Origin: a virus
Length of the DNA stretch: 64,000 nt
Virus record (IMG/VR): IMGVR_UViG_3300032238_001058
Coordinates: 1 to 64,000 of that record
Strand: one strand, 5' to 3'
Shown here: piece after piece, positions 11,047 to 14,468 of the stretch
How the letters are laid out: each line of letters opens with the position of its first letter
Position numbering within the stretch: the first letter of the stretch is position 1
Position numbers and translations under genes: made by a program
The notes under the pieces: model-generated
The model's database searches: none
Told to the model about the DNA's origin: nothing
Seen by the model: the letters and a program-made list of their open reading frames with translations, nothing else

Positions 11047-11224
11047 GTTGTTGTGTTGGAGTTGGATTAGTAATGTCAATGCCAACCACTGCAGTTGCAG
11101 TGATGCTGGCAATTACCAGTGTGATGGCTGCCATACAGATCTTACTAAGGCGAGTCTCATGAGACGCATAGTAAGAATCGAGGCAGATAAATCGCCCTGG
11201 TGATAGACGTACTGTGTGTTTCAT
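11027..11224 (-). CDS. small membrane protein
   Basis: single hydrophobic segment. Confidence 0.6.
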   Translation of the reverse strand: MKHTVRLSPGRFICLDSYYASHETRLSKICMAAITLVIASITATAVVGIDITNPTPTQQHDNTQR

Positions 11225-11484
11225 TAGTTGGTTGCAAGGATGTACTTAACGCATGCGTAAGTTGGTGCTACATAATCTGTAGGAATTTCGTGGTAATAAT
11301 ACCATTCACCTTTGCAGTCAATTGATATGCAAGAGTTTTCAGTTGCAAGTTGTAGTGCTTTGTCACCTGTGGTGCACCAAATCATGTAAACATTCTGATC
11401 AAACAACAGATAGTAATCATCCGGTTTGATGTCAAACTGTTTGAGTGCAGCTTGAATTTGACCGTGGTCAAGTGTGATTGGCAT
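11224..11484 (-). CDS. hypothetical protein
   Basis: ORF; start refined to MPITLD. Confidence 0.65.
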   Translation of the reverse strand: MPITLDHGQIQAALKQFDIKPDDYYLLFDQNVYMIWCTTGDKALQLATENSCISIDCKGEWYYYHEIPTDYVAPTYACVKYILATN

Positions 11485-11506
11485 AGGTGTGCAATTGGTT
11501 TGTGTG

Positions 11507-11559
11507 TGCAGACGGTGAGGTCTGCATAGAAGGGAGTATACCTCCCCTCCAGGCAAACG
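11507..11559 (-). ncRNA. putative two-state RNA switch, copy 1
   Basis: after TGA: GTTTGC-[GC hairpin]-GCAGAC-loop-GTCTGC; middle strand pairs with either flank. Confidence 0.7.
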
Positions 11560-11817
11560 TCAGTCTTCGATGCCGTACTCCTGTTCCCACTTCAGTAACG
11601 CACGGTTGAGATCAACCTTCGTCTTAAGGAAGATGCAAACAGGGATCAGGTCCTCGAACTTTGCCATGCCATCTTGCCAGGCAAAGAAAAGCTCAAGTGC
11701 TTTCTGCCTGCGGTCTTCAATAGACCAGTCAATGCATGGTAGCTCAGCAGTGGAATCCCTCCTGGCAAGCAGGCGAGATTCTTGCGTGAGCAGATATTCA
11801 ACGTATGAAGGAGTCAT
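11560..11817 (-). CDS. hypothetical protein
   Basis: ORF. Confidence 0.7.
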   Translation of the reverse strand: MTPSYVEYLLTQESRLLARRDSTAELPCIDWSIEDRRQKALELFFAWQDGMAKFEDLIPVCIFLKTKVDLNRALLKWEQEYGIED

Positions 11818-11842
11818 GAATTGAGTCCTAGGTGAGTTGAGT

Positions 11843-11892
11843 TACAGACCATGAGGTCTGCAGAGAGGGCCCAAAGACCCTCAGTGCAAACG
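11843..11892 (-). ncRNA. putative two-state RNA switch, copy 2
   Basis: after TGA: GTTTGCA-CT-GAGGGTC-TTTG-GGCCCTC-TC-TGCAGAC-CTCATG-GTCTGTA. Confidence 0.7.
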
Positions 11893-12093
11893 TCAGAGTG
11901 TACGTTTATCCAAGCAATAGTACTTATCTCCTAGCAAGTCATGCATGAAGATAAGTTGATGCCCTGGTTTTGCAGGACAATGCTTAAGATAATACTTGTT
12001 AAGTAACTGCTGTGCTCCAATAGATAGGAGCATGCCTGTTGCCGTGCCAATGGTAATGGCCAGAACAGAGTTTGCAAATGTGTTGTCGTTCAT
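11893..12093 (-). CDS. small membrane-anchored protein
   Basis: N-terminal hydrophobic helix plus a Cys pair. Confidence 0.65.
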   Translation of the reverse strand: MNDNTFANSVLAITIGTATGMLLSIGAQQLLNKYYLKHCPAKPGHQLIFMHDLLGDKYYCLDKRTL

Positions 12094-12338
12094 CAGATGG
12101 TGTCTGCGAGTGTGTCAAGATGCAGTTGAGTAATGTGCTGATAGTAATCAGACATTGCAGTTAGTAATTCCTTGGTGCCACAAGGTATACCTCCCATCAA
12201 AGTCTGGGAGTAACGTTCAATCCAGTCGGGATTGCCCGCCCAATCATCTACTTGCACCTGGTAGTGAAGCATGGTTGATTCTCCACCATGCCAAGTGATG
12301 CGTTGAGTGGCACCTTCGTAAGGGTAATAACAGAGCAT
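12093..12338 (-). CDS. hypothetical protein
   Basis: ORF. Confidence 0.65.
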   Translation of the reverse strand: MLCYYPYEGATQRITWHGGESTMLHYQVQVDDWAGNPDWIERYSQTLMGGIPCGTKELLTAMSDYYQHITQLHLDTLADTI

Positions 12339-12361
12339 TGAGTTGAACTCAATAGATTTGA

Positions 12362-12412
12362 TACAGGATGTTGAGTCCTGCAGAGAAGGCCCGTAGGCCC
12401 TCAGTGCAGGAG
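12362..12412 (-). ncRNA. putative two-state RNA switch, copy 3
   Basis: after TGA: TCCTGCA-CT-GAGGGCC-TACG-GGCCTTC-TC-TGCAGGA-CTCAACA-TCCTGTA (compensatory changes vs copies 1-2). Confidence 0.7.
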
Positions 12413-12601
12413 TCAGACTTCAGTCTTAGGAGTAATAACGAATGCCATATCTTTCGGCATAATGAGTGCCGCTGCCCGAGTTCTGTACTCGTTCAGCTTT
12501 ACATCAATAGCCCCCTTGGCAGGTATCTTGGCATTCTCTACGAATGTTGCTGCACCCTGGAGGAATGCAGCAGTGTTCTTACGCAGGTTAAGTGCAGTCA
12601 T
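12413..12601 (-). CDS. hypothetical protein
   Basis: ORF; start after CA-rich leader. Confidence 0.65.
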   Translation of the reverse strand: MTALNLRKNTAAFLQGAATFVENAKIPAKGAIDVKLNEYRTRAAALIMPKDMAFVITPKTEV

Positions 12602-12680
12602 GTTGAGTTGGTGTTGTGTAGGTGCCACAGAATTGTGGCAATAGTTGTGTGGGGCATACGATGCCCCGGCTCACACCTGG

Positions 12681-12881
12681 TCAGCTGACCATCACAACGT
12701 CGTCTGCTTCCATCATCTCCTGAAAAGACATGATCCGTACGTCATGCTTACCTTGGATACCATCGTTCAACTCTGGCGAGTTAAGCATGTGATCTAGTTG
12801 TGCAGCCTCGATTAGTGCTTCTTCCCATTGAAGGGAAGAACCATGTTGTACGTCGTCAATAACAATGTAGTACATTTGCAT
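12681..12881 (-). CDS. hypothetical protein
   Basis: ORF; start refined. Confidence 0.6.
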   Translation of the reverse strand: MQMYYIVIDDVQHGSSLQWEEALIEAAQLDHMLNSPELNDGIQGKHDVRIMSFQEMMEADDVVMVS

Positions 12882-13394: not shown

Positions 13395-13678
13395 GGTGTT
13401 ACTCCGTAGGGTGAGCTTGGTCTTACACTGCTGGAGTGCAGCTGCCAAGGTCGTGACCAACCGCCGAGTTGTCTGCTGCGTTTAACGTCCAGCTTGACGA
13501 GTTAATCCCGACCTTTCACATCGGGATTTAGATCACTATTCTTGGTGACCAACCCAGCGCGTCGTGGCCAGCACTTCCTGTGTGCGATACGAATTCGTAT
13601 CAATAGGCATAAATACCTAGTGGAAAACGGTAGTGAGGGCTACATAAACCCCTGGTTGCCCAGGGGAAGAGGTAACCG

Positions 13679-13972
13679 TCAACCAATGCAGGTTGCTTGT
13701 ATCACAAAGGTATGATCAGGCTTACGTGTGATCATTACTCGCCACTCTCGTGGCTTAATGTAATCACACTTGACGCCATACTCAGACTGGATCATCTCCA
13801 GCTCATGGCAACGTAGATGGTTAAGAAGAGTTTGCATCAAGTGCTTCGGTGTTGTACCGCTGGCGCGAAACACTCCAGCTTTCATGTTTACCTTCTTACC
13901 CGCAAATAACGCGTAGCTTGCTTCCTCAATACGGTAATCAAGCTCACGCTCGCTGATTGTTGTTGTTGTCAT
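13679..13972 (-). CDS. hypothetical protein (first gene of the early operon)
   Basis: ORF after CA-rich leader. Confidence 0.7.
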   Translation of the reverse strand: MTTTTISERELDYRIEEASYALFAGKKVNMKAGVFRASGTTPKHLMQTLLNHLRCHELEMIQSEYGVKCDYIKPREWRVMITRKPDHTFVIQATCIG

Positions 13973-14264: not shown

Positions 14265-14468
14265 TTAACTGTTCCTAACTTTTTTGGCGGCTTTAGCTGC
14301 TTTGCGGTAGGTTCCAGTATCTGGACTTTGTCTTACAAGTTCTTTTCGTGCTCCAGAGACAAATGCATGTACATCCAAAGAGTCTGCACCACTGGCAGCC
14401 AGGTTATTTGCTTCTTTTTGAATTGTATCTAACGCAACAATGCGCTCGGCTTTGTTCTCGGGGTTCAT
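14265..14468 (-). CDS. hypothetical protein
   Basis: 67-aa ORF. Confidence 0.65.
   Translation of the reverse strand: MNPENKAERIVALDTIQKEANNLAASGADSLDVHAFVSGARKELVRQSPDTGTYRKAAKAAKKVRNS

Follow-up and report, generated by a model that had tools for sequence, protein, structure and literature searches.

What is the role of a short hairpin-forming element that occurs three times between small genes of a virus, each time beginning at the stop codon of one gene and ending shortly before the start codon of the next? The element lies in a stretch of 64,000 nucleotides (hereafter the window), i.e. the first 64 kb of a single-contig IMG/VR virus record of 82,624 bp (82.6 kb) that is rated complete by CheckV. 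An earlier reading, made from the letters of the window (the sequence-only reading), had described each copy as three strands, X, Y and Z, of which Y could pair with either X or Z, and had proposed that a ribosome terminating at the stop codon flips the RNA from the first pairing to the second, thereby coupling upstream translation to downstream initiation, RNase cleavage or termination. Our results are best explained if these elements form a family of bistable RNA modules at the junctions between cistrons, carried in the early operons of S-EIV1-like phages and of further aquatic phages.

The phage and its block of small genes

The large terminase of the virus is 81% identical to its counterpart in the Synechococcus phage S-EIV1 (KJ410740), and the primase 56%. 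This kinship is visible at the protein level only, as a blastn search of the element region against 50,697 phage records returned no DNA match. The copies sit in a minus-strand block of small genes, which looks like an early operon because it runs leftward from a divergent region near 14.5 kb. Scans of the small proteins flanking the copies against PHROGs and Pfam yielded nothing informative. The sole tRNA of the phage is Leu-UAA. A search for an RNase III gene in the phage found none; Synechococcus encodes such an enzyme (PMC5829567).

Anatomy of the element

The three copies are located on the minus strand, exactly where the sequence-only reading had placed them, and share the same order from 5' to 3': the UGA of an upstream ORF, one C, strand X, a pyrimidine internal loop (1x1 or 2x2), a GC-rich apical hairpin, strand Y, a C followed by UCA, a linker of 2-3 nt and strand Z, after which a G-poor, CA-rich leader of 22-25 nt leads to the AUG of the next ORF. 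In each copy the UGA closes an upstream ORF and X begins 1 nt behind it, and the CA-rich leader and the next start codon follow Z as had been described.

Copy 1 (11507..11562, strands GTTTGC/GCAGAC/GTCTGC for X, Y and Z) consists of UGA at 11562-11560, C at 11559, X at 11558-11553, an apical hairpin of 10 bp with a 5-nt loop at 11551-11527, Y at 11526-11520, UCA at 11518-11516 and Z at 11513-11507; the downstream part (11482..11506) comprises a CA-rich leader of 22 nt (11506-11485) and the AUG (11484-11482) of ORF 11224-11484. Copy 2 (11843..11895, GTTTGCA/TGCAGAC/GTCTGTA) has its UGA at 11895-11893, X at 11891-11885, an apical hairpin of 7 bp with a UUUG loop at 11882-11865 above a CU/UC internal loop, Y at 11862-11856, UCA at 11854-11852 and Z at 11849-11843, followed (11815..11842) by a 25-nt leader and the AUG (11817-11815) of ORF 11560-11817. 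In copy 3 (12362..12415, TCCTGCA/TGCAGGA/TCCTGTA) the UGA lies at 12415-12413, X at 12411-12405, the apical hairpin, likewise of 7 bp but with a UACG loop and again with a CU/UC internal loop below, at 12402-12385, Y at 12382-12376, UCA at 12374-12372 and Z at 12368-12362; here (12336..12361) the leader measures 23 nt and the AUG (12338-12336) belongs to ORF 12093-12338. All of these strands were found as claimed. In addition, the RNAfold structures revealed that the stop codon itself base-pairs with the UCA downstream of Y, across a C.C mismatch.

R1, a covariance model of the long X:Y fold, scores the three copies at 36.1 bits (E 1e-6), 71.8 bits and 82.2 bits, respectively. A fourth copy on the minus strand (13618..13684) is devoid of strand Z. 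Its UGA (13681-13679) is the stop of ORF 13679-13972, and it possesses X (GGUUAC, 13677-13672), an apical hairpin capped by GCAA, Y (GUAGCC, 13643-13638) and UCA (13636-13634), while Z and a nearby start codon are absent and a short U run follows. Its score with R1 is weak (18.6 bits, E ~0.05); its predicted folding energy is -29.0 kcal/mol.

Distribution of the family

An exact-pattern scan of IMG/VR gave 29 loci, 26 of which hold real copies, and a covariance-model search, which had been recommended along with the first reading, was run with R1 on the flanks of these loci and yielded many more divergent copies. Together with the pattern scans this brought the number of distinct copies in S-EIV1 and IMG/VR contigs to 46, after removal of opposite-strand shadows and duplicates, and the family thus extends well beyond the three copies of the window. 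One of the 46 belongs to the cultured phage S-EIV1 (KJ410740, locus L001, 42652-42720). A pattern scan of metagenome contigs, in which Y5-7, CUCA and Z were left free, added 44 further distinct instances, part of which may repeat IMG/VR copies. All of the ~90 distinct copies are found on the coding strand, and among them there are neither antisense copies nor copies in which X matches Z but not Y.

Early operons hold 3-5 copies each, and the same element joins different gene pairs in related phages. The lower architecture is constant across the family while the apical hairpin varies, being free in sequence, 6 to ~20 bp long and mostly capped by UNCG or GNRA tetraloops. Some copies reside on GC-rich contigs with a T7-type terminase, where the element precedes an ArdC-like anti-restriction gene. 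This means that the family is not limited to S-EIV1-like phages; at least two phage lineages, which differ in terminase type, carry it. In 185,579 species-representative prokaryote genomes the canonical pattern was encountered only on two contigs of metagenome-assembled genomes, which resemble mis-binned phage DNA; for this reason an origin from host genomes was dismissed and the element is regarded as phage-borne.

Covariation of both helices

In the R1 alignment the long fold with X:Y is 98.8% paired over 41-45 distinct copies, and two-sided changes occur at 9 of its 17 pairs. Most of the covariation signal of X:Y comes from its two outer pairs, X1:Y7 (GC 20, UA 19, CG 2) and X2:Y6 (UG 13, CG 12, GC 12, UA 3). 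Sliding the 3' partners by 1-3 columns lowered pairing to 34-50%. The competing helix Y:Z is 91.9% paired over the same range of copies, against 46-55% in slid controls, with two-sided changes at 4 of 7 pairs, among them Y7:Z1 (AU 22, CG 15, GC 2) and Y6:Z2 (GC 28, CG 14, AU 3). The terminal pair Y1:Z7 is frequently open, so that the working Y:Z helix has 6 bp. None of 500 shuffles reached the observed covariation score, either for X:Y or for Y:Z.

As the linker length varies and MAFFT does not align Z, the Y:Z alignment required a second covariance model, that of the two-hairpin structure, which was built from the copies with a 7-nt loop only and to which all copies were then realigned. A check independent of this model gave a corresponding result: a complement of 6 or 7 consecutive pairs is present 3-8 nt past Y in 40 of the 46 copies, compared with 1.65% for shuffled downstream sequence and 24% for downstream sequence taken from copies of other classes. 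These classes are defined by the outer triplet of Y, for which six variants exist (GGA, GCC, GGC, GAC, GGG and GAG), and X and Z match Y in every one of them. For example, the orthologous junction of gene families 4 and 0 has the triplet GAC in the window, but GGA in L013 and GGG in L004, and X and Z match it in all three.

The concerted change of all three strands, which had first been seen in copy 3, is thus not a chance feature of that copy: the same positions of Y covary with both partners, and the homologs support two helices, where support for a single one would have spoken against the first reading. These comparisons support selection on both mutually exclusive helices. The UGCAG in Y, the CUCA and the C.C mismatch are invariant although pairing would permit change. 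A triple helix of X, Y and Z was dismissed by inspection, a parallel Hoogsteen register of X on Y being impossible.

Two competing folds

The copies can adopt two mutually exclusive structures. The first (L fold) is a long irregular hairpin, composed of UGA:UCA (3 bp), a C.C or U.C mismatch, X:Y (6-7 bp), the pyrimidine internal loop and the apical hairpin; the second (S fold) combines the apical hairpin with a Y:Z hairpin. The apical hairpin, which is very stable, is common to both. RNAfold predicts one long hairpin for each of copies 1-3, with energies of -28.5 to -30.9 kcal/mol (z -4.6 to -5.6; copy 1: -30.9 kcal/mol, z -4.81), and 0 of 200 shuffles folded as well as the native sequences. 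When each fold was forced in turn, the long and the two-hairpin structures reached -27.8 and -26.5 kcal/mol in copy 1 (a gap of 1.3), -25.5 and -25.2 kcal/mol in copy 2 (0.3), and -29.6 and -21.3 kcal/mol in copy 3. The mean gap over copies is 4.4 kcal/mol in favour of L (sd 3.4); the minimum-energy structure of the S-EIV1 copy is the S fold.

The two partners of Y differ in the kind of pairs they offer. The G residues of Y tend to meet U in X (G.U) and C in Z (G-C); in the GGA class of the metagenome set, for instance, 35 of 37 copies have UCU or UUC as the triplet in X, and likewise 35 of 37 have UCC in Z. This systematic asymmetry suggests that the balance of the folds is tuned. Pairing of X with the invariant UGCA, which forms the 5' end of Y, is complete, whereas the far end of Z is often G.U-paired or open. 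Owing to these G.U and open positions, X grips the 5' half of Y better and Z the 3' half, which is the pattern one expects of a low-barrier strand exchange. On the opposite strand the G.U pairs would become A.C mismatches, and the element therefore acts as sense-strand RNA.

The embedded stop codon

Of the 46 copies, 45 have UGA as their stop triplet, which stands constantly 1 nt before X; by a crude genome-wide estimate, UGA accounts for ~46% of all stops. The upstream ORF truly ends at the UGA of the element in 41 of the 45 copies that could be assessed and in 51 of the 59 metagenome copies (~88%). In the remaining ~12%, the real stop (UAA, UAG or UGA) is situated 2-13 nt upstream in another frame, and the UGA of the element is still kept. 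Since the triplet is conserved even where it is unused as a stop, part of its conservation is structural and reflects its pairing with UCA. The context is usually a weak UGA-C, and the codon preceding the stop is not conserved. The proposed anchoring to a stop codon thus holds with regard to the fixed spacing and, in most copies, to the true stop, but it is not obligatory.

The junction downstream of the element

Between the end of Z and the start codon there are 16-37 nt (mode 22), and the leader (36% A, 41% C, 17% T and 5.7% G) does not contain a Shine-Dalgarno sequence. Z is absent in three copies only, all of which follow gene family 9, lack a nearby start codon and, as the only copies to do so, carry a U run a few nt beyond the stem. 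In the window, the block of small genes starts with gene family 9, and orthologous Z-less copies follow this family in L013 and L007. The presence of Z goes with the presence of a downstream gene.

Two of the outputs that the sequence-only reading had considered are not borne out. Blocking the stop, the following base and X, as a mimic of a ribosome at the stop codon, left the predicted unpaired probability of the start window (-18..+5) at 0.65, compared with 0.63 without constraint (41 copies), and no fourth strand complementary to Z was found downstream or near the start codon. As start accessibility is the same in both states and Z is without a downstream complement, translational coupling of the classical kind, by RNA unfolding (reviewed in PMC12548453), and with it control of downstream initiation by unmasking of the start, is unsupported. 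Control of termination is unlikely, as a U-tract follows neither helix: the GC-rich hairpin of an intrinsic (Rho-independent) terminator is present, but CUCA, Z and the CA-rich leader (17% T) take the place of the U-tract, and a terminator scan flagged none of the three window copies. A promoter reading was likewise rejected, with 2 promoter-like sites in the region compared to 6.2 expected by chance; the match within copy 1 relies on the apical loop peculiar to it.

A possible translation-sensitive toggle

The model that we tentatively favour, and regard as quite possible if short of probable, is that the element acts as a translation-sensitive toggle controlling RNA processing or stability at the junction. 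Unwinding of mRNA by the ribosomal helicase begins at about +11 relative to the P-site codon, and with UGA in the A site it would reach UGA:UCA, the mismatch base that follows the stop, and X1-X3. To terminate at the embedded UGA, a ribosome would have to unpair UGA:UCA and at least the outer X triplet. It is this triplet that covaries, and G.U pairs weaken it; Z would take the same Y triplet by Watson-Crick pairs, thereby capturing Y. Because the two folds are nearly isoenergetic, Z should capture Y once the ribosome strips X. The flip from X:Y to Y:Z that had been proposed at the outset is thus physically plausible, also in view of the UGA positioned 1 nt before X, and on these mechanistic grounds a terminating ribosome likely flips L to S in most copies. 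The proposal fares less well where the stop is located 2-13 nt upstream (~12%): there a terminating ribosome would barely reach X, yet the element is intact.

In terms of output, the L fold would mark an untranslated junction, and the S fold a junction in use. As the start region is unaffected by the flip, we place the output at the fate of the mRNA at the junction and not at an unmasking of the next start. The L fold would offer its long duplex to a dsRNA-specific nuclease, whereas the S fold would offer none; any cut 5' of Y would leave the downstream mRNA with the Y:Z hairpin as a cap, placed at a constant distance from its start, and the ~22 nt of unstructured, CA-rich leader without Shine-Dalgarno sequence would let the next gene initiate on its own. 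Three further points speak against the toggle. X should re-invade fast after the ribosome departs, which would make the S fold short-lived; canonical copies, with 17 bp and two internal loops, are short for a substrate of bacterial RNase III; and with equal start accessibility in both states the sequence by itself yields no output. A broader claim, namely that these elements constitute a new class of cis-acting RNAs sensing translation, in which termination at a helix-embedded stop would flip a three-strand toggle and report translation of the upstream cistron to the processing or decay machinery, as a portable junction part of early operons, is conceivable but rather unlikely.

Alternative explanations

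The element might instead be a processing site that does not sense ribosomes, an explanation which we regard as the chief rival of the toggle and nevertheless hold to be unlikely. Host RNase III, or a different structure-specific nuclease, would make a single cut in the L fold, located on the 3' side of its internal loop, as happens at T7 R1.1. Z would then displace X from Y, releasing the downstream RNA; the Y:Z hairpin at its 5' terminus would block the entry of RNase E or RNase J, the apical hairpin would protect the upstream 3' end, and the overlap with the stop codon would be compaction only. The setting indeed recalls the T7 early operon, with several related irregular internal-loop hairpins between small early genes, and Y begins right after the internal loop, so that Y:Z would be nearly flush with the new 5' end. 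Processing explains the tight spacing of ~22 nt between Z and the AUG, as well as the tolerance of copies with a stop upstream, better than the toggle does. It also agrees with the restriction of Z-less copies to places where no gene follows and with the UNCG and GNRA apical tetraloops, which are typical of exonuclease barriers, and the release of the product would be eased by the G.U pairs in X. The phage has no RNase III gene of its own, but Synechococcus does (PMC5829567). By contrast, processing leaves unexplained why UGA is the true stop at 1-nt spacing in most copies, an anchoring that the toggle explains better. It further needs a single cut, whereas double cuts by RNase III are the norm in E. 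coli and would, within the stem, truncate Y (PMC6212723), and the canonical helix is short (3+7+7 bp with 1x1 and 2x2 loops), reaching up to ~30 bp in other copies.

An improbable alternative is that of a static insulator or stabiliser, in which the long hairpin would block 3' exonucleases and post-termination scanning into the next gene, while Z would merely cut the ribosome's cost of opening the lower stem. The stability of the apical hairpin in both folds fits this explanation, as do the observation that Y:Z largely repays that cost and the report that structure right after a stop codon reduces translational coupling (review PMC12548453). However, the Z-less copies keep the embedded stop and the lower stem, so termination needs no Z, and the fixed distance between Z and the AUG finds no explanation.

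The invariance of UGCAG in Y, CUCA and the C.C mismatch beyond the needs of pairing could point to an RNA-binding protein of phage or host origin, such as an antiterminator or translational regulator, which in one of the folds would read the CUCA loop, the pyrimidine internal loop or the UGCA core. Yet no candidate protein was found, the element spans at least two phage lineages with different terminase types, and 3-5 copies per operon exceed the number for sites of the nut or put type; we therefore consider a protein site to be quite improbable. Even less can be said for a module at the level of DNA, be it a recombination junction of early cassettes or a small mobile element flanked by X and Z as its direct repeats, which would have no RNA function. 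Such a module, very improbable in our view, would account for the different gene pairs joined by the element in related phages, but not for the covariation of Y with both X and Z, nor for the fact that differences between X and Z are transitions mostly keeping G.U pairing, on the sense strand only, nor for the occurrence of all copies on the coding strand. Finally, a recoding signal (selenocysteine insertion element, stop-codon readthrough or ribosomal bypass), for which a UGA in a usually weak UGA-C context followed by a stable hairpin might be taken, is so improbable that it was rejected, since a second in-frame UGA 12 nt downstream closes the frame in canonical copies, the next gene has its own AUG, the Rfam SECIS models found no match, the phage has no tRNA other than Leu-UAA and the codon ahead of the stop shows no conservation.

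Relation to known RNA elements

The element does not correspond to a named family in Rfam 15, as the sequence-only reading had presumed: a scan at gathering thresholds found no family at the copies, the only match in the window being a tRNA, and an E-value scan of 11300-12800 returned only a chance match (E 4.6) on the opposite strand. The early-region RNase III signals of phage T7 (R0.3, R0.5, R1.1 and R1.3) are similar in being related irregular internal-loop hairpins of 50-60 nt between early cistrons, and the apical hairpin would, as there, remain on the upstream product. Their sequences are dissimilar, however, they possess neither a third strand nor an embedded stop, and the host in the present case is a cyanobacterium. 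Ribosome-mediated attenuators (the ermC and cat leaders, the trp attenuator) likewise have mutually exclusive helices that share a strand, and in both cases a ribosome on the first strand would decide between them. But attenuators sense a ribosome stalled in a leader peptide, whereas the sensor here would be the normal termination of a real gene, and their output strand carries a Shine-Dalgarno sequence, start codon or terminator, whereas Z carries no start signal or terminator. The element accordingly shares with attenuators the helices with a common strand and a stop position that would bring a ribosome over X, but not the control of a start site or terminator.

The promoter-early stem-loop (PeSL) cassettes of T4-type phages are also repeated intergenic modules, flanking small early genes of differing order; unlike our element, which has no conserved promoter, they carry an early promoter, and alternative pairing has not been reported for them. 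REP elements and chloroplast intercistronic expression elements resemble it as stable intercistronic hairpins that could define and protect processed RNA ends, but they are not anchored to a stop codon and have no covarying competitor strand. Phage hairpins between cistrons, mutually exclusive helices and actuation by a ribosome footprint are each known. To our knowledge, there is no named counterpart to their combination, with a stop in the base of the helix, a covarying competitor strand and portability between unrelated genes, and clear covariation for two helices that exclude each other and share one strand is rare in natural RNAs outside riboswitches and attenuators.

Among the papers searched, no description of the element was found. 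A catalogue of ~8,500 candidate structured RNAs derived from clustered intergenic regions of IMG/VR, the same data source, describes no motif of this kind in its main text (PMC10690425), and the element may stand there unnamed as a DNAVirus_X entry. If termination drives the flip, it would constitute a simple, ligand-free way of reading translation status into mRNA fate, and would explain how a row of small early genes can be expressed by cyanophages in the absence of Shine-Dalgarno sequences. As a compact module of stop codon, hairpin, competitor strand and ~22-nt leader that is portable between unrelated genes, the element is a candidate part for the engineering of cyanobacterial operons. 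The copy in the cultured phage S-EIV1 means that an experimental system exists. S-EIV1 itself stems from an arctic lake.

Post-stop structures of the early operon

The X/Y/Z element is not the only repeat that follows stop codons in the apparent early operon, the minus-strand block of small genes running leftward from near 14.5 kb. A second repeated element, distinct from it, is found on the minus strand of the window at 13232-13175 and 12952-12900, in each case immediately 3' of a UGA stop (13235-13233 and 12955-12953, respectively). Common to both copies are a UCCGU-UAAGCGG stretch, a hairpin whose loop reads UGCAA(A/U) and, at the end, an AUUGCC motif. Since a different repeat thus occupies two other UGA stops, more than one family of post-stop-codon structures is employed by the early operon.

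A further junction, located 5' of copy 3 (window 12680-12629, minus strand), consists of UGA, GUGUG, a hairpin (GGGGCAU/AUGCCCC), CACAC, a second hairpin (UGCCACA/UGUGGCA) and a CA-rich leader. This junction is matched by neither of the two covariance models of the element, and its fold z-score is only -1.2; it may represent a degenerate relative. Downstream of the copy that lacks strand Z (13618-13684), the 16-bp palindrome GATACGAATTCGTATC stands alone at window 13601-13586, and a near-identical form of it constitutes the tip of the apical hairpin in full copies on two related contigs (L018 2229-2316 and L020 11-99).

Transcription signals

Just upstream of the element-bearing block, a strong canonical intrinsic terminator (window 14233-14213, minus strand; seven GC pairs, then a long run of U) is located 3' of a 67-aa ORF (14265-14468), which points to a separate short transcription unit. 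Within copy 1, a promoter-like match (window 11563-11535, minus strand; CTGACG, 17 nt, TATACT; 9 of 12 positions) has the stop-codon region as its -35 box and the apical loop of the copy itself as its -10 box; it is not present in the other copies.

Element copies on related contigs

GC-rich contigs that carry a T7-type terminase have the element immediately 5' of a gene of ~325 aa, and some of these contigs have it 3' of that gene as well. This gene (L005 2431-3399, with orthologues in L012, L014, L015, L016 and L024) opens with a run of threonine codons, and its product combines an ArdC N-terminal domain with a zincin peptidase domain. Canonical copies also occur on CAZJIF010000004.1 (L033; two copies) and RFQY01000156.1 (L034), which were assigned to genome bins named 'uncultured Klebsiella sp.' and 'Rhodobacteraceae bacterium', respectively, and look like mis-binned phage contigs.
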